Shown: piece after piece, positions 1 through 6,627 of the stretch
Layout: each line of letters starts with the position of its first letter
How positions within the stretch are numbered: position 1 is the first letter of the stretch
Virus record (IMG/VR): IMGVR_UViG_2778261592_000001
Coordinates: 1-6,627 of that record
Length of the DNA: 6,627 nucleotides
Reading direction: 5' to 3' (one strand)
From: a virus
Lineage: Duplodnaviria; Heunggongvirae; Uroviricota; Caudoviricetes
Translations under genes and position numbers: made by a program
The notes under the pieces: model-generated
The model's database searches: none
What the model was told of the DNA's origin: nothing
Seen by the model: only the letters and a program-made list of their open reading frames with translations

Positions 1-2054
1 TCGGTCAGAATGGCTGATTGTGCTTCCCGTGACTGTTTCAGCCACCACTTAATGGTGTCCCGATCGATGACTCCGCCTGCGGTTTCCAGATCGATAGTTT
101 TGCTGAATTCTGGCCCCATCTCTCCGGTTGCCGGATCAAAAAACTTACCGGCCAGAGCGTTTATTGGGGCATCAGGATTTTTGCCCATTGTTTCAAGGTT
201 AATCATCAGATGGTGCCACAACCTGCTGGTGGATGTGCTTTCACGATGACCGTTCACCTTAATTAAGGGATTTGCTGTCTCGCCACTTTCATTATCTGTG
301 GTGTGGTAGTGATCGCCGCCAGAGCCTTCCATTTCTTCCTGAGCTTCAGCCTGATTTTCTTCATCGAGTGTTTCCTGGTAGGTTGCGTTGCCCATCACCG
401 CGCCACAGTCAGGACAGTTGCCGCCACCGCTCTGACCGCAGGCGGTGCAGACTTTTTCCTCTTCCTGTTGCGCTACTGGTTCGGATTGTTTCGTTTCTGG
501 CTCGTCTTGTAACGCATTTTGGCTGTTTTGTTCTGCTTTCTGGTCGTTCTGTTCCGTTTCTTGCTGGTTCTGGTTCACAGAATCGCAGGTTTCAATCCCC
601 TTAACCCATTTCGGATCATTCGGGTCGCTAATCCCCTCAACAAATTCACCACGCGATACAGCAAGTAACTTATCGGCGTCAGGCTGGCTGATATTGGCTG
701 CCTGCATAATTTTGTTTACTTCGTCAGCGGTGACTTTTACTTGGTTAGCGGAACTCACCTGCGACTGAGCGTTCTGGCAATGTTCAGTTGTATCCGGTTC
801 CATTGTTTCAGTTGTTGCCTGTTCACCTGCCATTGCGTCAGATGGTTGTGGTTTTTCTTCTTCTGTTTCACGTTCAGTAACCACCTCGCGGTTAATTTCT
901 TCCAGGATATCTTTTTCCGGCGTATGCCGGGCAGCTGTGAGAGTTTCCTTGCTGGGGTTCTCGTGATCAGTTTCCGTCAAATAGGCGTTGATATACCCCT
1001 GAAGGCGTCCCGGGTAGTGATAAAATTCAGGGTGTGCGCTTCGGATAAGTGCAAAAATAGCGGCGCGGGAATAGTCCAGAATACCCGGGGTTGCACGAAG
1101 TGCTGCGGACCATTCTTTGAACGGACTTTCTTTTTTCAGGACTACTTCTTTTGCGCGACGATAAACGCTGCCCGGAATTTCATAAATATTAAAATCCATC
1201 GGAAGTGTGGCAGCTGCAATCTCCACATCCAGTGTGTCGAGGGTGTGTACTAAATTCGGATTGCGATCGGTTTTGTTCCCACCGCCAGCATTAGCACCGG
1301 AAGCCGTGCGGGTGATGCGTGAAACACGATTTCCTTTCATCCACTCTTTTGTCAGCAGACCTCGATCAGTGTAGTCAGCGTCCAGGTATGCTTCGAAAAA
1401 AGCAGTTATTAGTCCCAGGTCTGAATTACCCGGATTAGGGAAAACTTTGTCAGTGTCACGAACCAGTTTGTGGAGGTCGCGAATCTCCAGCGAGTCGAGC
1501 AGACTGGTTTTATGCGAAATAGCCAGGGCAGTAACAGCCGGTAGTTCTTCAGCCCGTGCAATGTGTAATGCCTGGAGTTCGTCGCGTGAAACGTGCGTTA
1601 CTGGTTTTTCGCTGCCGTGTTGAGCAAGCCAACGAATGGGCAATTCCTGACCGGAGACAGGCAGAAGCATGCTCTCCTCAATCTCAGTCATGTCTTCGCC
1701 GTTGATGTTGGTATTGTCAGTGCTGGCTGGTTTGTCCTGAACAGAGGGGGAAGGGCCGATAAATGTCATTGTGATGCCATCTTTCCCGCCTTTTTCATAG
1801 CGGTTGCAGAATTCAGTATCAAACACGCCTTCTGGCGGAAGGTCGTCAACAACGGGCAAATTGACGCGGACGGGTTTTTTAAAGTCGTCTTCATCATAAT
1901 CGTTGTCATCCATTGCAGTAATGCAGCGGGAGATTGCAACAGATAATTTTTTTGCTGTAGTCCAGTAAAAACCACCTTTAATTCCCAGGCGTTTTCTTAC
2001 TTTGTCATTTTTTGCTTCGCAATATAGTGCAAATTCTTCTTTATCAGTGCTCAT
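1..2054 (-). CDS. recE: RecE-like exonuclease VIII family protein, N-terminal 684 codons; C-terminus lies beyond the left edge
   Basis: Uninterrupted minus-strand reading frame from ATG at 2054 ([15 protein letters not shown]...) to position 1, hand-translated with no stop; not in the ORF track because it is edge-truncated. A long block ([85 protein letters not shown]) matches my recollection of the Rac prophage RecE N-terminal region. Sits directly downstream of ydfD, where K-12 has the ydfE fragment. Weak GAGG Shine-Dalgarno 14-17 nt upstream. Confidence 0.7.
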
Positions 2055-2147
2055 TATTGATAAACCTCATCACAGATTTAAGGGTGAACAAATCTCTGCC
2101 ATTGCTGACATATAAGAATGAAACTGGATATTTATTACGGTGCTGTT

Positions 2148-2336
2148 TTAAAATCCTGCCGGGATTTCGTTATCCTGGTGAATAACTTTATCGACCGGAT
2201 AACAGTTGCCTGGAATTTTCTGTTCGGTTGCTGCGGCCATACATTCCTGCATTGTTCTGTGAACACTGACTGCAATATCAACTGGCTCTCCGGAAACAAG
2301 AAAAACCGTCAGAATAAGTGCAAATGCTGAATTCAT
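2148..2336 (-). CDS. ydfD: YdfD-like small lysis protein with N-terminal hydrophobic segment (62 aa)
   Basis: MNSAFALILTVFLVSGEPVDIAVSVH... Start at 2336 has AAGGA 8 nt upstream and overlaps the dicB stop as ATGA. The longer track start at 2390 would overlap dicB by 58 nt. Position and size match ydfD of Qin (63 aa in K-12). Confidence 0.75.
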   Translation of the reverse strand: MNSAFALILTVFLVSGEPVDIAVSVHRTMQECMAAATEQKIPGNCYPVDKVIHQDNEIPAGF

Positions 2337-2521
2337 TGCGCACATCCTTTTGGCATCAGACGTAAACGAGCCAGCATTGAAACAATGCATATTTTATTTA
2401 ATAGCTCCCGTTCTTGTTTTCTCTTGTTAATGGCATCTTCAGTAAATACAGGGTTACTGATAGTGACACCAATTTCAAAACAACCTTCAGACGTATTAAC
2501 GTTTGGTAATAACGTTTTCAT
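2333..2521 (-). CDS. dicB: DicB cell-division inhibitor (MinC-activating), 62 aa
   Basis: MKTLLPNVNTSEGCFEIGVTISNPVFTEDAINKRKQERELLNKICIVSMLARLRLMPKGCAQ matches recalled DicB in sequence and length. GAGGA 7 nt upstream of ATG at 2521. Lies 175 nt downstream of DicF, as in K-12. Confidence 0.9.
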   Translation of the reverse strand: MKTLLPNVNTSEGCFEIGVTISNPVFTEDAINKRKQERELLNKICIVSMLARLRLMPKGCAQ

Positions 2522-2690
2522 TATCGCGTCCTCAACAATGAATTTTGTGATGCAGTGCCTGGTGCCTCCAGGTGACGTTAACCAGTTAACAATTAACGCC
2601 GGATACAGAGAATCCACCCATAACACTGTTTTTGGTTTTAACTGTTCCGCGTGCGCTCAGCCGCATTCACCACATCACAAAATTCACTTT

Positions 2691-2733
2691 AAAAAGGGCG
2701 GCAGAGCAGTCACGGAGTAAAACTGATACCGCC
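2691..2733 (-). terminator. Rho-independent terminator forming the DicF 3' end
   Basis: Minus-strand GGCGG (plus 2729-2733) pairs with CCGCC (within plus 2696-2701), followed by a five-U tract (plus 2691-2695). Confidence 0.6.
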
Positions 2734-2748
2734 AAACGTCACCAGAAA
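2696..2748 (-). ncRNA. dicF: DicF small regulatory RNA (53 nt)
   Basis: Minus-strand sequence UUUCUGGUGACGUUUGGCGGUAUCAGUUUUACUCCGUGACUGCUCUGCCGCCC followed by UUUUU (plus 2691-2695) matches recalled DicF exactly. 3' GC-rich stem (GGCGG/CCGCC) plus U-tract forms the intrinsic terminator. Confidence 0.85.
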
Positions 2749-3088
2749 ATTGATAACAGAAGGCGTTGCAGCGGGGTTGTCACTTAAGCGTATGGTCAAC
2801 CTGACAACCCGGTGTCCTCAACGGGGAAGAAATAACCCCTCCATACTTACCGCCGCACCATTTCGCGGGTTGCCACAACCGGAAGCGCACGGTCGACGAA
2901 AAGTTAACGACAGGCTATCTATGAACCAGCTACCTCGCCGTGCGCTTTCGCGTTATGGTCTGACTTTTCAGGGAAATATCCTTTCAGTAAACTGTCAGTG
3001 CCGGATGCTCACCCGCGTCCGGCGCACGCACTCCACCTCACCCGTGGAGAACTACTTAATTACCAACCTTAGCTTCGTTGGTTAGCTA

Positions 3089-3307
3089 TTAACGCGGGTA
3101 TGTAATCATTCTGGCAATGCTTAATGCCGCTGCTTTTTCCAGATTGGTGATATCCTGCTCCAGAGCGGACAGATTTTCAGCCTGCTTAGCCCTGGCTTCA
3201 TTGGCCCATTTCAGATCCTGCGCTGCATTAATTTTCTGGCGCATCCACTCATAAAGTTCATCATCGGTATAGTCTGGTGCGATGATGACGGGTTCTCGTT
3301 TCTGCAT
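3089..3307 (-). CDS. ydfC: YdfC-like hypothetical protein, predicted helical (72 aa)
   Basis: MQKREPVIIAPDYTDDELYEWMRQKINAAQDLKWANEARAKQAENLSALEQD... GAGGAA 5 nt upstream of the ATG. Position and length match ydfC in the Qin dicB operon. Confidence 0.8.
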   Translation of the reverse strand: MQKREPVIIAPDYTDDELYEWMRQKINAAQDLKWANEARAKQAENLSALEQDITNLEKAAALSIARMITYPR

Positions 3308-3336
3308 ACTGATTCCTCGCGGTGCTGTTTCGCTTA

Positions 3337-3465
3337 TCAGCCGTTAGATTTTGCCGAGCTGGAAAGCGCCTGTTTAAATTCGTTGAAGCTGAGAGCTTCT
3401 TCGCCGTCGGCAAGACCTTCGAAGTATTCTTCATAAGCCTTTTCCATGATTGTGTCGAAATCCAT
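3337..3465 (-). CDS. ydfB: YdfB-like small acidic protein (42 aa)
   Basis: Hand-translated MDFDTIMEKAYEEYFEGLADGEEALSFNEFKQALSSSAKSNG, ending in tandem stops TGATAA. ATG lies 1 nt after the ydfA stop (TGAtATG), with AGGTGAG upstream. Below the ORF-track size cut-off. Confidence 0.75.
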   Translation of the reverse strand: MDFDTIMEKAYEEYFEGLADGEEALSFNEFKQALSSSAKSNG

Positions 3466-3466
3466 A

Positions 3467-3622
3467 TCACTCACCTGAGTTTCTTTCCAGCCAGCGACGG
3501 GCACCATTTTCGGTTTTAAACGTTTTGCTTTTGGTATACGTCATCGCGGTGAACGTGCCGTCCTGGTTGGGGAACACGCCACATACCAGAGATTCGCTGT
3601 TGCCAAGATCGATAGTATCCAT
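3467..3622 (-). CDS. ydfA: YdfA-like small protein (51 aa)
   Basis: MDTIDLGNSESLVCGVFPNQDGTFTAMTYTKSKTFKTENGARRWLERNSGE. GAGGT 4-5 nt upstream of the ATG at 3622. The longer track ORF (start 3700) would begin inside the predicted promoter, so the internal start is preferred. Confidence 0.75.
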   Translation of the reverse strand: MDTIDLGNSESLVCGVFPNQDGTFTAMTYTKSKTFKTENGARRWLERNSGE

Positions 3623-3699
3623 GCTGACCTCATTTCCCCTTAACGCCGGGGTAGCGGAACTGTTTGCTGAGAACACCGTGCGGTGTCTTGATGCAAGCA

Positions 3700-3719
3700 A
3701 GATTAGCCATGACTAACAA
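3700..3719. promoter_or_regulatory. Operator-like imperfect palindrome, 16/20 match to the 20-bp site at 4246-4265
   Basis: agATTAGCCATGaCTAACAA; overlaps the -10 of the candidate operon promoter. Confidence 0.5.
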
Positions 3720-3728
3720 TTTGGTCAA
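3700..3728 (-). promoter_or_regulatory. Candidate sigma-70 promoter of the ydfABC-dicF-dicB-ydfD operon, overlapped by two operator palindromes
   Basis: Minus strand reads TTGACC (plus 3723-3728), 17-nt spacer, TAATCT (plus 3700-3705), about 80 nt upstream of the ydfA ATG. Confidence 0.5.
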
Positions 3729-3734
3729 GTATTT

Positions 3735-3754
3735 TTGTTTGCCATGGCTAACAT
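3735..3754. promoter_or_regulatory. Operator-like imperfect palindrome, 18/20 match to the 20-bp site at 4246-4265
   Basis: TTGTTtGCCATGGCTAACAt; centre lies 35 bp from the centre of the 3700-3719 site, just upstream of the -35. Confidence 0.55.
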
Positions 3755-3758
3755 TTTG

Positions 3759-3793
3759 GGCAGCCAAAAAGATAACGCATTGATTGCGTTATC
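3759..3793 (-). terminator. Candidate intrinsic terminator at the end of dicA
   Basis: Inverted repeat GATAACGCA (3771-3779) / TGCGTTATC (3785-3793) with 5-nt loop; the dicA stop codon lies in the stem. On the minus strand it is followed by TTTTT (plus 3766-3770). Confidence 0.45.
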
Positions 3794-4196
3794 TTTTGTT
3801 TGTTCGTTGACGGGCTTTTAATAACTCTTCAAAGAGTTTGTTGAAATTTTTTACTCGGGCGCGCATCTCGGTGAGCTGAGCATCCTGTTCTGATTCAGGC
3901 AATGCATTAAAAAGCTCAAGGAGCTCATGTTCTTTGGGGGATAGAGCAACTGGCTCCTCAATAGGTGGTGATGGCTGCTTGTCTTCATCGCCAAATAGAA
4001 TCCATGTTGGCGAGCACTGCAGTACTTTGCTGAGGGCAAAAAGATTCTTTCCTGTAGGTTCGCTATCATCCCGCTCCCATTGTGAAACCGATACGTGAGA
4101 AATTTTCAGGACTTTAGCAAGAGACCTTTGGGTGTATTTGAGGTTTTTTCGGCGATATCTAATGCGTTCGCCAATGGTTAAATTTTTTGTATCCAT
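3789..4196 (-). CDS. dicA: DicA, CI-like HTH (XRE family) prophage repressor, 135 aa
   Basis: MDTKNLTIGERIRYRRKNLKYTQRSLAKVLKISHVSVSQWERDDSEPTGKNLFALSKVLQCSPTWILFG... near-identical to recalled K-12 DicA. Divergent from the Cro-like gene. No obvious Shine-Dalgarno. Confidence 0.9.
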   Translation of the reverse strand: MDTKNLTIGERIRYRRKNLKYTQRSLAKVLKISHVSVSQWERDDSEPTGKNLFALSKVLQCSPTWILFGDEDKQPSPPIEEPVALSPKEHELLELFNALPESEQDAQLTEMRARVKNFNKLFEELLKARQRTNKR

Positions 4197-4218
4197 AGTT
4201 AGCTAATGCTAAATCTTA

Positions 4219-4247
4219 TTGACTATGTTTTTGTTAACATCTATTTT
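4219..4247 (+). promoter_or_regulatory. Candidate sigma-70 promoter for dicC
   Basis: TTGACT (4219-4224), 17-nt spacer, TATTTT (4242-4247); the 20-bp operator palindrome overlaps the -10 and the predicted transcription start. Confidence 0.5.
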
Positions 4248-4265
4248 GTTAGCCATGGCTAACAA
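4246..4265. promoter_or_regulatory. Perfect 20-bp palindromic operator, candidate DicA binding site
   Basis: TTGTTAGCCATGGCTAACAA is its own reverse complement. Located in the dicA-dicC intergenic region; two degenerate copies lie upstream of ydfA. Confidence 0.65.
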
Positions 4266-4279
4266 TTAAGGTGCTTTAA

Positions 4280-4510
4280 ATGCTTAAAACTGACGCACTT
4301 TTGTATTTCGGTTCAAAAACAAAACTTGCACAAGCTGCTGGTATTCGTTTGGCTTCGCTTTATAGCTGGAAAGGGGAGCTAGTACCTGAAGGTCGCGCGA
4401 TGCGCCTGCAAGAGGCATCCGGCGGGGAACTTCAGTACGACCCCAAAGTTTATGACGAATATCGTAAGGCAAAGCGGGCGGGGCGGTTGAACAATGAAAA
4501 TCACCCCTGA
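4280..4510 (+). CDS. dicC: DicC, Cro-like regulator, 76 aa
   Basis: MLKTDALLYFGSKTKLAQAAGIRLASLYSWKGELVPEGRAMRLQEASGGELQYDPKVYDEYRKAKRAGRLNNENHP matches recalled DicC. TAAGG 8 nt upstream of the ATG. Confidence 0.9.
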   Translation: MLKTDALLYFGSKTKLAQAAGIRLASLYSWKGELVPEGRAMRLQEASGGELQYDPKVYDEYRKAKRAGRLNNENHP

Positions 4511-5045
4511 ACAGGTTTGTGAGGCTCTGGATGCCTGGGTGTGCCGACCAGGAATGACACAGGAACAGGCGACGATATTAATCACGGAAGCATTCTGGGC
4601 TCTGAAAGAACGCCCGAACATCGATGTTCAACGCATCACGTTTAATGATGGCGAGGTTGATCAACGGGCACTGGGCGTTAACCGGGTGAAGATATTCGAA
4701 CGCTGGAAAGCTATCGACACCAGGGATAAGCGGAAAAAATTCACGGCGCTGATTCCGGCAATTATGGAGGCTATCCGAATTAGTGATTTCAGGTTGTATC
4801 GTGAGATCAGTGATGGAAAAAGCATTACGTACATGATCGCCGGATTAAACAAAGAATATGGCGATGTGGTGGAGTCCGGGCTGCTTTTTGCGGATCCATC
4901 TGTTGTGGAACGTGAGACTGACGAGCTTATAGAAAAAGCTATTGCTTTCAAGCATGCGTATCGTCAGCAGTATCAATATTACTTTGCAGATAAACAAATA
5001 TCTGCCAGGGGTTCGTATGAGTATCGATGCACTACGATGGGCTAA
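4494..5045 (+). CDS. YdaT-like (CII-analog family) protein, 183 aa; intact counterpart of the K-12 ydfX remnant
   Basis: Complete ORF starting 17 nt before the dicC stop. Begins MKI... and has the motif KFTALIPAIMEAI, resembling the KLIPAILAIL region I recall in Rac YdaT. Same position (after the cro-like gene) as ydaT in Rac-type prophages. Family assignment is from memory only. Confidence 0.55.
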   Translation: MKITPEQVCEALDAWVCRPGMTQEQATILITEAFWALKERPNIDVQRITFNDGEVDQRALGVNRVKIFERWKAIDTRDKRKKFTALIPAIMEAIRISDFRLYREISDGKSITYMIAGLNKEYGDVVESGLLFADPSVVERETDELIEKAIAFKHAYRQQYQYYFADKQISARGSYEYRCTTMG

Positions 5046-6057
5046 AAAGGTGAAAACCGGCAGTTCATCCAGTAAGTCTGTATTGACCTGGCTTGCTGAT
5101 ATGTGCGGTGCCGATTTGTGTGCATACCCGTCTGTATCTGCACTGGCAGAAGTAACGGAACTGAACAAAAAGACTGTGCAGGACAGCTTACGACACCTGA
5201 TGGAGATTGGGTTAATTGTTGATACCGGTGAGAGAAAAGGCAGAACAAAGCAAATTGTGGTGTACCGACTTATCGGTGTAGAAGAAAGTGTTGCCGAGCC
5301 TGAATACACCCAAAAACGGGTGTCTTTAAAGGTGGGTAAAATTGGTGCTGTTAATAAAAACAGTACCGAAAACGGTTATGTTTCAGCACAAAAGAGCCCC
5401 AAAAACGGAACTCTTTGTTGCATGGAAAATAACCAAAGACACCCAAATTTTCCATCAAAGACACCCAAAAACGGATCACGGAACCCAAAGGAACCCAAAG
5501 ATCTAAACCCCACACATAACGCACACGAGAGTGCTCCGATCAGTGAGCAGGAAGTTTTGTCGTTACAGGCAGCCCCCCATGTATTCCTGGATGGCCTGAG
5601 CGAACCCATCGGAAAATTTCCGATGACCGATAGCTGGTATCCGTCACGGGATTTTCGACGACGGGCTGCGTTGTGGGGGATGGCTTTGCCGGAGACAGAA
5701 TTTACACCTGCTGAACTTACCGCATTCCGGGACTACTGGGCAGCGGAGGGGAAAGTGTTTACGCAGATTCAGTGGGAGCAGAAATTCGCCCGTCACGTAA
5801 ATCACGTCAGGGCGCAGGTTAAACCAGTCAGCAAGGGGGTAAACCATGCAGCAGCACCAGGTGGCACCGCATCACGGGCAGTTCAGGAAATTCGGGCAGC
5901 ACGTGAGCAGTGGGAACGTGAAAACGGATTTATCAGCGACGGAAACGGCCTGGAAGCTGTGGGAACTCATGGGGGAGGTTTATTCGAACCGCTGGACCCA
6001 GAAGAACGGGGCCGCACCTTCGAAGCTCTGGATTGCACAGATTGGCGCGATGACTGA
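5017..6057 (+). CDS. Phage replication initiation protein: winged-helix N-terminal domain, low-complexity linker, DnaT-like C-terminal domain (346 aa from chosen start)
   Basis: Start ATG 5017 (MSIDALRWAKKV...) has AGGGG 5 nt upstream and overlaps the upstream gene by 29 nt; the track ORF start at 4942 would overlap by 104 nt. C-terminal segment (WYPSRDFRRRAALWGMALPETEFTPAELTAFRDYWAAEGKVFTQIQWEQKFARHV) resembles DnaT-like ssDNA-binding domains. Occupies the lambda O position upstream of a P-like gene. Confidence 0.7.
   Translation: MSIDALRWAKKVKTGSSSSKSVLTWLADMCGADLCAYPSVSALAEVTELNKKTVQDSLRHLMEIGLIVDTGERKGRTKQIVVYRLIGVEESVAEPEYTQKRVSLKVGKIGAVNKNSTENGYVSAQKSPKNGTLCCMENNQRHPNFPSKTPKNGSRNPKEPKDLNPTHNAHESAPISEQEVLSLQAAPHVFLDGLSEPIGKFPMTDSWYPSRDFRRRAALWGMALPETEFTPAELTAFRDYWAAEGKVFTQIQWEQKFARHVNHVRAQVKPVSKGVNHAAAPGGTASRAVQEIRAAREQWERENGFISDGNGLEAVGTHGGGLFEPLDPEERGRTFEALDCTDWRDD
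5397..5500. repeat. Iteron-like direct repeats (ACCCAAA core), candidate replication origin inside the initiator gene
   Basis: CAAAGACACCCAAA at 5434-5447 and 5456-5469 (22-bp spacing); CCCAAAAACGGA at 5398-5409 and 5464-5475 (66-bp spacing); tandem GGAACCCAAA at 5480-5489 and 5490-5499. A moderately AT-rich stretch lies just upstream (5350-5395). Confidence 0.5.
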
Positions 6058-6511
6058 GCAGCAAATCCGGCAGGTCTGCCGCCAGTGCATGGACCGCTGC
6101 CGGGCGGGTGAAACATGGCCTCCGGACCTGGCTGAGTTTGTGGCGCTGATTTCGGAAAGCGGGGCCAATCCATTTGGCCTGACGGTGGATGCTGTGATGG
6201 AGGAGTATCGCCGCTGGCGTAATGAGTCCTGGCGATATAACGGAAGCGACAAATATCCGTGGCCTCAGCCTGTGCTGTATCACATTTGCCTCGAGATGCG
6301 TTCAAAGGGGATTGAACGCCAGATGACCGAAGGGGAATTAAAACGGCTTGCAGAACGGCAGCTGACGAAATGGGCAAAGCATGTTAGTAACGGCCTGAGC
6401 GTTCCGCCAGTACGGCGACAACTGGCGGCACCAAAACGCCCGTTGGGACCAACGCCAATTGAGTTGCTGAAACAGGAGTATGAACGCCGGAAAGCGGCTG
6501 GTTTTGTCTGA
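6050..6511 (+). CDS. Lambda P-like replication protein (DnaB helicase loader family); start uncertain, in-frame alternatives at 5969 and 5846
   Basis: Resembles recalled lambda P: AMTEQQIRQVCRQ..ETWPPDLAEFVALI vs ITTMEQVNAGMRVARRQ..PFLPSPGQFVAWC, and YPWPQPVLYH..TEGELKRLAERQ vs YPWKSNAHYW..TDAELRRKAADE. ATG 6050 overlaps the upstream stop as ATGACTGA. The frame is open from 5846, which has AAGGGGG 6 nt upstream and would give 221 aa. Confidence 0.7.
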   Translation: MTEQQIRQVCRQCMDRCRAGETWPPDLAEFVALISESGANPFGLTVDAVMEEYRRWRNESWRYNGSDKYPWPQPVLYHICLEMRSKGIERQMTEGELKRLAERQLTKWAKHVSNGLSVPPVRRQLAAPKRPLGPTPIELLKQEYERRKAAGFV

Positions 6512-6545
6512 TTTGAGAAGTAATTTTTATCCGGAGGAAATTTTA

Positions 6546-6627
6546 ATGGGAACCGTATTGCATGCACTGAAAGCGATGGGTAAAGCCAATTCTGTTGAAC
6601 TGGCGGCGCGGCTTGATATCAGCCGTG
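6546..6627 (+). CDS. Hypothetical protein, 5' fragment only (27 codons in window), possibly Ren-like
   Basis: ATG 6546 preceded by GGAGGAAA with 7-nt spacer; frame open to the window end (MGTVLHALKAMGKANSVELAARLDISR...). Loose resemblance to lambda Ren N-terminus; too short to classify. Confidence 0.45.
   Translation, partial: MGTVLHALKAMGKANSVELAARLDISR

Follow-up and report, generated by a model that had tools for sequence, protein, structure and literature searches.

The stretch of DNA considered here (the window, by which we mean all 6,627 nucleotides (nt) of IMG/VR virus record IMGVR_UViG_2778261592_000001, positions 1 to 6,627) is, to judge from its sequence, the immunity and replication region of a lambdoid prophage of Escherichia coli, and our subject is a cluster of short repeats inside its replication initiator gene. 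The initiator gene is 99.9% identical to a copy in E. coli O157 FDAARGOS_293 (nucleotide search) and 98.3% identical to that of the "PPompW" prophages of Shiga-toxin-producing E. coli, and its prophage context includes an integrase, cI and cro. The module was matched in 1254 of 5426 complete E. coli genomes (megablast). The predicted initiator matches the "replication initiation protein / O-like" family of PHROG and, in Pfam, a sub-threshold HTH_36 domain at the N-terminus followed by a DnaT domain (E 1.4e-16). In the AlphaFold model a confident winged-helix N-domain and a DnaT-type domain are joined by a disordered linker, and all of the repeats fall in the DNA that codes for this linker (Table 1). 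The fold of the N-domain resembles those of winged-helix regulators and plasmid RepA_N initiators, by analogy with which it is presumed to be the reader of the repeats. On its own it matches the O-like PHROGs 391, 678 and 345, of which 678 and 345 are also matched by the N-terminal part of lambda O, a protein to which HHpred assigned HTH_36 (Brezellec et al., PMC5509034). The modelled DnaT-type domain superposes on PDB entries 6aeq and 4ou6 with a template modelling score of 0.9 and 52-57% identity. An identification of the whole protein as the primosomal protein DnaT was rejected, as its match to NCBIfam model NF002770 falls well short of the cutoff (91.9 vs. 201 bits) and is limited to residues 194-278.

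An earlier note on this DNA described three families of direct repeats sharing an ACCCAAA core, and every one of the three sets was found where it had been placed: the 14-mer CAAAGACACCCAAA at 5434 and 5456 with a spacing of 22 nt (and a further 86% copy at 5486), CCCAAAAACGGA at 5398 and 5464 with a spacing of 66 nt, and the tandem GGAACCCAAA, which runs for 2.1 units over 5480-5500. The grouping, however, has to be redrawn, with the repeats falling into dyad-type iterons on the one hand and, on the other, a 10-nt block that follows the last of them. The cluster is also wider than was described, with a 19-nt family present in four copies (starting at 5302, 5358, 5391 and 5457) whose core CC[C/G]AAAA(A)CGG lies at 5309, 5366, 5398 and 5464. 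Positions 5302-5500 thus hold four strict cores, one variant copy and two units of the tandem. The 6.6-kb window has seven CCCAAA words, six of which fall within 5309-5499, all of these on the plus strand, and the numbers of 8-, 10- and 12-mers shared within 5296-5505 (29, 17 and 7, respectively) were matched in at most 20 of 5000 dinucleotide shuffles. Iteron 1 retains its position and frame in Klebsiella-type and Edwardsiella homologues. The AATT-type centre of the variant iteron 4 also occurs in lambda iteron 3 and in several homologues; its assignment is weaker than that of the four strict copies. The proposal that the repeats are spaced by whole helical turns is borne out in part, the centre-to-centre distances of 56.5, 32.5, 44.5 and 21.5 nt amounting to 5.4, 3.1, 4.2 and 2.05 turns.

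Table 1. Features of the replication initiator gene, its repeat cluster and the neighbouring genes, in window coordinates
Feature	Position	Strand	Basis or remark
cI-like repressor	3789-4196	-	gene order around initiator
pR-like promoter candidate upstream of cro	4219-4247	+	consensus scan alone, 9/12 matches
cro-like gene	4280-4510	+	gene order around initiator
YdaT-family / CII-like gene	4494-5045	+	PHROG "CII-like transcriptional activator", 1.4e-41
Replication initiator gene, 346 aa	5017-6057	+	Pfam, PHROG, RefSeq annotation in the 99.9% identical genome, AlphaFold model
N-terminal winged-helix DNA-binding domain, aa 1-91	5017-5289	+	AlphaFold predicted local distance difference test (pLDDT) >90; helices, then beta-hairpin wing
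Disordered inter-domain linker, aa 92-195	5290-5601	+	AlphaFold pLDDT <50
Iteron 1, ACACCCAAAAACGGGTGT	5306-5323		perfect 6-nt dyad arms around AAAAAC; read T-Q-K-R
Least stable 40-mer of the gene, between iterons 1 and 2	5326-5365		nearest-neighbour profile, -47.0 kcal/mol
Iteron 2, GTACCGAAAACGGTTA	5363-5378		read T-E-N-G
Iteron 3, AGCCCCAAAAACGGAACT	5395-5412		read P-K-N-G
Second low-stability 40-mer	5422-5461		nearest-neighbour profile, -48.4 kcal/mol
Variant iteron 4, ACACCCAAATTTTCCATC	5439-5456		AATT-type centre; read H-P-N-F-P
Iteron 5, ACACCCAAAAACGGATCA	5461-5478		read P-K-N-G
Tandem GGAACCCAAA x2	5480-5499		Tandem Repeats Finder; local form of family-wide GAACC-type block after last iteron
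Mosaic junction, TAAACCCCACACATAACGC	5504-5522		partial megablast matches; junction read in L012-L014
DnaT-type single-stranded DNA (ssDNA)-binding domain, aa ~197-270	5605-5826	+	PDB sequence matches 6aep, 4ou6, 9zbt, E 1e-17 to 1e-19
Lambda-P-like helicase loader gene	6050-6511	+	Pfam Phage_lambda_P 1.7e-15; PHROG "P-like helicase loader" 2.7e-54

It had been cautioned in the earlier note that the DNA repeats could partly reflect repetition in the peptide, however, three independent tests favour the DNA. The copies in the window occupy reading frames 0, 1 and 2, such that the 14-mer is translated QRHP(N) at 5434 and (S)KTPK at 5456, while the core is translated TQKR at 5309 and PKNG at 5398 and 5464. 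When the protein was held fixed and synonymous codons were permuted or redrawn, the repetition of 5296-5505 was reached in 0-1 of 5000 replicates. The third line comes from ten distant relatives of the N-domain (26-63% protein identity, loci of 40-64% GC) in hosts ranging from Klebsiella and Edwardsiella through Ralstonia, together with metagenomic phages. Each carries 3-6 copies of the DNA word at gene positions ~265-465, and the proposed alignment across relatives gave a positive answer, with the same word kept where the amino acids change and with synonymous positions invariant. The 11 linker windows (2651 nt) hold 39 strict cores, compared with a single one in the 116,907 nt outside them, both strands included. 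The cores of the homologues are spread over the three frames and are read TQKR, SQKR, PKNG, TENG, PENG or VPKT. Arginine is encoded by CGG in 14 of 14 cases inside the motifs compared with 31 of 170 elsewhere (p = 5e-10), and other codons are equally fixed there (Lys AAA 26/26, Asn AAC 25/25, Gln CAA 14/14, Glu GAA 13/13); QKRN and KNGT are both encoded by CAAAAACGGAAC. A word that is independent of frame, with invariant synonymous sites, implies that the conserved peptide motifs of the family are by-products of one DNA word, and on these comparisons we take the repetition to be a property of the DNA and not of the peptide.

The second element is equally widespread. In every homologue the last iteron is followed by 2-4 GAACC-type words spaced 9-13 nt apart (for example, GAACCAGTCAT three times in phiV10 and Vibrio phage H20), and the join between last iteron and block is kept in three frames, as KNGTRNP, QKRDTEP and VPKTVHGTV. 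A block of this type was present in 63 of 68 loci encoding the N-domain, compared with 1.3% of random 70-mers from the same loci, although the 68 include near-duplicates and the fraction overstates their independence. The 10-nt tandem of the window sits where lambda has its unwinding region. Across the family, the stretch after the last iteron is ~5 percentage points richer in AT than the locus mean, and in the window positions 5476-5530 show a strong asymmetry between the strands (A 24, C 19, G 8, T 4).

The homologues are always found in phage replication modules, in which the partner gene is P-like, DnaB or DnaC/IstB-like. The same layout, often with regular 24-nt tandem iterons, is present in isolated replicating phages (phiV10, AP22, Vibrio H20, Bcep176 and GF-2), and in GF-2 the N-domain is fused to a lambda-O-type C-terminal half. 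In a reverse test, a two-core DNA pattern run against viral contigs returned at least 120 loci, of which many are expected to be chance matches; among the matches listed, 53 of 121 places had a coding sequence for the N-domain immediately upstream, in the same orientation. Of the other arrays, several belong to true lambda-O-type genes (TTACCGAAAACGGTAA in three to four copies) and others to winged-helix initiators missed by the N-domain hidden Markov model, several of these then followed by very AT-rich tracts. Arrays with a CCGAAAACGG core were seen in viral contigs L035, L061, L082, L086, L108, L137 and L101. Arrays in lambda-O-type and other winged-helix genes place the iterons of the window within an extended lambda-type iteron family, and they suggest that one recognition word is common to a very broad superfamily of initiators.

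A further line of evidence comes from the exchange of modules at the domain boundary. Where prophages have other N-terminal modules, the megablast matches start at query positions 475-509, which correspond to window positions ~5491-5525, and the C-terminal half downstream of this junction is common to prophages whose N-terminal modules are unrelated (three genes read). Each foreign N-module carries its own, different repeats just upstream of the junction (L014:2027-3067, L012:1962-3032). One type has four copies of TGTCACGAC at 10-nt spacing and two more copies besides, while in the Rac ydaU type the words resemble TGTTCAAAC and one is inverted; these repeats are candidate origins of their own modules. 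In Mcat8, a divergent N-domain is accompanied by a different iteron in the same place. It is established for lambda that the N-domain and the iterons set origin specificity while the C-terminal half partners P. The foreign N-modules with their own repeats form the arrangement expected if the N-domain and iterons likewise set origin specificity here and the C-terminal half works with the P-like protein. We read the N-domain and iterons as one specificity module that is exchanged as a unit, and the C-terminal half and P-like gene as the other.

That an origin should lie inside the initiator gene is textbook knowledge for lambda. The lambda record annotates four iterons at O codons ~117-145, in different frames, with dyad arms around AAAAC, followed by an AT-rich tract. 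The window shares with it the placement of iterons between N-domain and C-domain of the initiator, their different frames, dyad arms around an A-tract centre (lambda TCCCTCAAAACGAGGGA vs. window ACACCCAAAAACGGGTGT), a total of 4-5 sites, a P-like gene directly downstream and the pairing of N-domain and iterons as a specificity module. Where a lambda-type origin calls for at least three dyad-type sites between the DNA-binding and C-terminal domains, four strict and one variant site lie there at 5306-5478; constraint at the DNA level, the helicase-loader gene immediately downstream and co-exchange of N-domain and iterons are also found. The lambda-like architecture anticipated in the earlier note thus holds for the iterons in the inter-domain linker, their frames and their dyad-plus-AAAAC design, but the adjacent AT-rich tract of lambda is not evident. 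The two systems differ in other respects as well: the C-terminal domain of the window protein is DnaT-type whereas that of lambda O is Phg_2220_C, the 40-bp AT-rich tract is replaced by the GAACC-type block of 10-12-nt repeats, the spacing of the iterons is irregular, and the N-domain is only distantly related to that of O. Overall, we estimate a probability of roughly 0.78 that this lambdoid prophage starts its replication at the cluster of 5302-5522, with the origin lying, as in lambda, within the initiator gene itself.

Such an origin may operate as follows. By comparison with lambda O, the winged helices of initiator dimers would contact the dyad iterons, whose central A-tracts could favour bending or wrapping of the DNA into an O-some-like complex. 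The duplex would then open beside the last iteron, with the GAACC block and the A+C-rich stretch at 5480-5522 as the favoured place. This site is preferred because it is positionally homologous to the unwinding tract of lambda and is strand-asymmetric, and the low-stability spacers at 5326-5365 and 5422-5461 are alternative sites of first opening. The DnaT-type domain may hold the single strand and/or dock the P-like protein, which in turn would deliver host DnaB. Transcription from the pR-like promoter candidate upstream of cro, a prediction from a consensus scan, would cross the origin and may help its activation.

Several observations weigh against assigning the origin to this cluster. Aligned directly by hhalign, the N-domain and lambda O give a weak match (E 0.004, probability 8%), and the iteron spacing is irregular. 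A lambda-like AT-rich tract was sought beside the iterons and none was evident, the 60 nt past the last iteron being 50% AT. Any placement of the unwinding site is accordingly a guess, and the effect of the two low-stability 40-mers is modest (window mean -54.7, sd 3.9 kcal/mol). Among five close E. coli copies, ~5 of the 12 variable columns fall in iterons, which is about the expectation from length, and no purifying selection is visible; with this null result, support for the origin rests on the distant homologues and not on population data. The common O157 variant carries core changes, to AAAATGG in iteron 2 and to AACAG in iteron 3. Strain 2013C_3653 (L022:574-834) has one 10-nt GGAACCCAAA unit, with a frameshift that leaves a helix-turn-helix-only protein and a pseudogene, and database entries 134-182 residues long match frameshifts within the repeats. 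Many chromosomal copies are probably decaying and may be relics.

These data bear most directly on an alternative in which the initiator does bind the repeats but replication is not initiated there, or in which the repeats are an inactive relic in a cryptic prophage whose active origin lies elsewhere or is absent. Binding sites of this kind could serve in autoregulation, in handcuffing and copy control, or in the exclusion of related phages by titration, and plasmid iterons are known to have control roles also. The substitutions in iteron cores and the frameshifts leaving N-domain-only proteins in close E. coli copies are in keeping with it, as is the want of a clear adjacent AT-rich unwinding element. 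However, isolated lytic and temperate phages share the array and have no other repeat cluster in the replication regions that were fetched, the homologously placed array is the origin in lambda, and strongly AT-rich tracts do follow the array in some related initiator genes. The window copy itself has four intact strict cores and an open reading frame. We consider this alternative unlikely.

Far less probable is the possibility that the repeats are the shadow of a repetitive low-complexity linker peptide (PKNG / PKEPK) selected as protein. The linker peptide is indeed repetitive and predicted to be disordered, and similar peptide motifs recur in the homologues, but selection on the peptide does not account for one DNA word read in three frames in the window and as TQKR, PKNG, TENG and VPKT across the family, for the invariant synonymous positions, or for the outcome of the protein-fixed codon nulls. 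Nor does it account for a tandem period of 10 nt, which is no multiple of three, or for a post-iteron block that is also kept in three frames, and this explanation is effectively refuted already. Equally remote is the suggestion that the repeats are a recombination hotspot for module exchange at the domain boundary and not a replication element. The mosaic junction with unrelated N-modules does lie immediately past the cluster, and the 10-nt tandem does change in unit number. The junction sequence, however, is the conserved start of the shared C-terminal half and not the repeats, the repeats differ between N-modules and so offer no homology for exchange, and recombination leaves unexplained why one word is conserved across genomes of 40-64% GC.

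The truncated proteins deserve comment in their own right. Protein P0007 (37 member sequences) fits three GGAACCCAAA units, while slips of 1 nt in A or C runs of the iterons would fit the truncated forms P0006 and P0016. The origin repeats make the initiator gene mutationally fragile. Programmed ribosomal frameshifting at CCCAAAN runs, yielding an N-domain-only product, can be set aside as wholly improbable: C CCA AAT (5442) and C CCA AAG (5484) do have the X XXY YYZ form in the zero frame and truncated N-domain proteins are annotated in some genomes, but DNA indels explain those proteins, no stimulatory RNA structure, conserved alternative frame or Rfam match was found in the region, and most copies of the word are outside the slippery register.

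The proposed origin can be set beside several known systems. The Shiga-toxin phages 933W and P27 have origins of six iterons within O (PMC7466680). These phages share with the window an enterohaemorrhagic E. coli (EHEC) prophage background, an origin inside O and a variable number of iterons, but they have true lambda-type O and P proteins and an AT-rich tract, whereas the window module is of the HTH_36 and DnaT-like type. The layout of the proposed origin is one known from lambda and Stx phages (PMC7466680), while for its module type no earlier description of an origin was found: a partial literature search for the HTH_36, DnaT-like and P-like module returned none, and nothing relevant was found on DnaT-like proteins of prophages or on iterons of phiV10 or epsilon15. 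Eru typing papers list the HTH_36 and DnaT-like module type without origin analysis or mention of iterons, and no origin feature was annotated under the match in the phage records examined.

DopC and DopE derive from O-like and P-like phage genes that have become domesticated in chromosomes, and they are the subject of the only paper found on this architecture (Brezellec et al., 2017, PMC5509034). Their two-gene architecture, HTH_36 with a DnaT C-domain followed by a P-like protein, is identical to that of the window; however, no iterons were found in dopC, which led its authors to conclude that it is no longer an origin (PMC5509034), whereas the iterons of the window are intact and lie in a prophage context. 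An assignment of the initiator itself as a DopC-type domesticated gene was rejected given its iterons and a prophage with integrase, cI and cro, and the window gene appears to represent the phage-type ancestor state of DopC. The Rac prophage, which carries the active origin oriJ (PMC3945230), has in ydaU-ydaV an initiator C-terminal half and P-like gene ~91% identical in DNA to those of the window, but its N-module is DUF1376-like and unrelated, with its different repeats upstream of the same junction. Iteron plasmids (RepA, pi, TrfA) also have winged-helix initiators that bind directly repeated sites, as the window initiator is presumed to do by analogy, and their Rep proteins are reported to bind ssDNA of the unwinding element (PMC4081077). 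Plasmid iterons, however, are outside the rep gene, beside DnaA boxes and an AT-rich DNA unwinding element, and an iteron-type plasmid origin was rejected for the window, where the iterons are intragenic and there is no DnaA box with 0 mismatches.

A number of other sequence features occur in and around the array. The only DnaA-box-like site near the cluster (5349-5357, minus strand, 1 mismatch, TTATTAACA) falls in the AT-richer sequence that separates iterons 1 and 2. GATC sites at 5474, 5500 and 5538 flank the 10-nt tandem. A 15-nt inverted repeat, 87% complementary, pairs 5318-5332 with 5452-5466, that is, the right flank of iteron 1 with the left flank of iteron 5 across 119 nt; it arises from extended iteron dyad arms (CAAAGACACCC / GGGTGTCTTTAAAG) and could permit a cruciform or hairpin. 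Iteron 2 includes ACCGAAAACGGT, which fits the papillomavirus E2 site form ACCN6GGT, a likeness taken to be coincidence. The likeness accounts for the preponderance of human papillomavirus papers in a literature search by iteron sequence, which matched only papers on papillomavirus E2 sites and primers. Scans for promoters and terminators found nothing within the repeat cluster, and Rfam returned no RNA family in that region.

The YdaT-family gene runs 29 nt into the initiator gene, whose stop in turn overlaps the start of the P-like gene at ATGACTGA; together, these overlaps suggest that the YdaT-family, initiator and P-like genes form a translationally coupled operon. The cro-like and YdaT-family genes (4280-5045) resemble the YdaS/YdaT pair. 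Elsewhere in the window, a full-length match to the DicF small RNA is present at 2696-2747 (minus strand, 76.7 bits, E 3.7e-16), and downstream of it on the same strand an open reading frame ending at 2333 encodes MKTLLPNVNTSEGCFEIG..., which we take to be DicB. A sub-threshold STnc100 match lies at 2489-2698 (minus strand). A tandem repeat at 486-576 with a 21-nt unit (TTGTTTCGTTTCTGGCTCGTT, 4.3 copies, 63% matches) falls in a region matching a large "exonuclease" gene on the minus strand of a near-identical genome.

A broader reading of these data can be put forward tentatively, and we regard it as rather doubtful. CC(C/G)-AAAA(A)-CGG would be common to a large and diverse set of winged-helix initiators (the HTH_36 family, lambda-O-type proteins and others from distant hosts), and in the family of the window initiator the site of unwinding or helicase loading would be formed by GAACC-type words, one every 9-13 nt, in place of the AT-rich tract, these words perhaps being read as ssDNA by the initiator or a host factor. 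As a side effect, the out-of-frame 10-nt tandem would make the gene prone to frameshifts, and the resulting origin-binding N-domain fragments could block the replication of related incoming phages.

What the prophage origin itself means is more immediate. A concrete candidate origin of ~220 bp (5302-5522) can now be assigned to a module type that is common in EHEC prophages, and the domesticated DopC gene gains an iteron-bearing phage counterpart. Overlapping DNA sites explain, as their by-products, the curious "QKRN / PKNGT / TENGT" motifs that are conserved in the peptides of these initiators. The parts most worth following are the family-wide signature and the second repeat block: CC[C/G]AAAA(A)CGG iterons followed by a GAACC repeat block provide a signature for origin finding that may be applied to phiV10, AP22-like Acinetobacter, Vibrio H20-like and Burkholderia phages among many.

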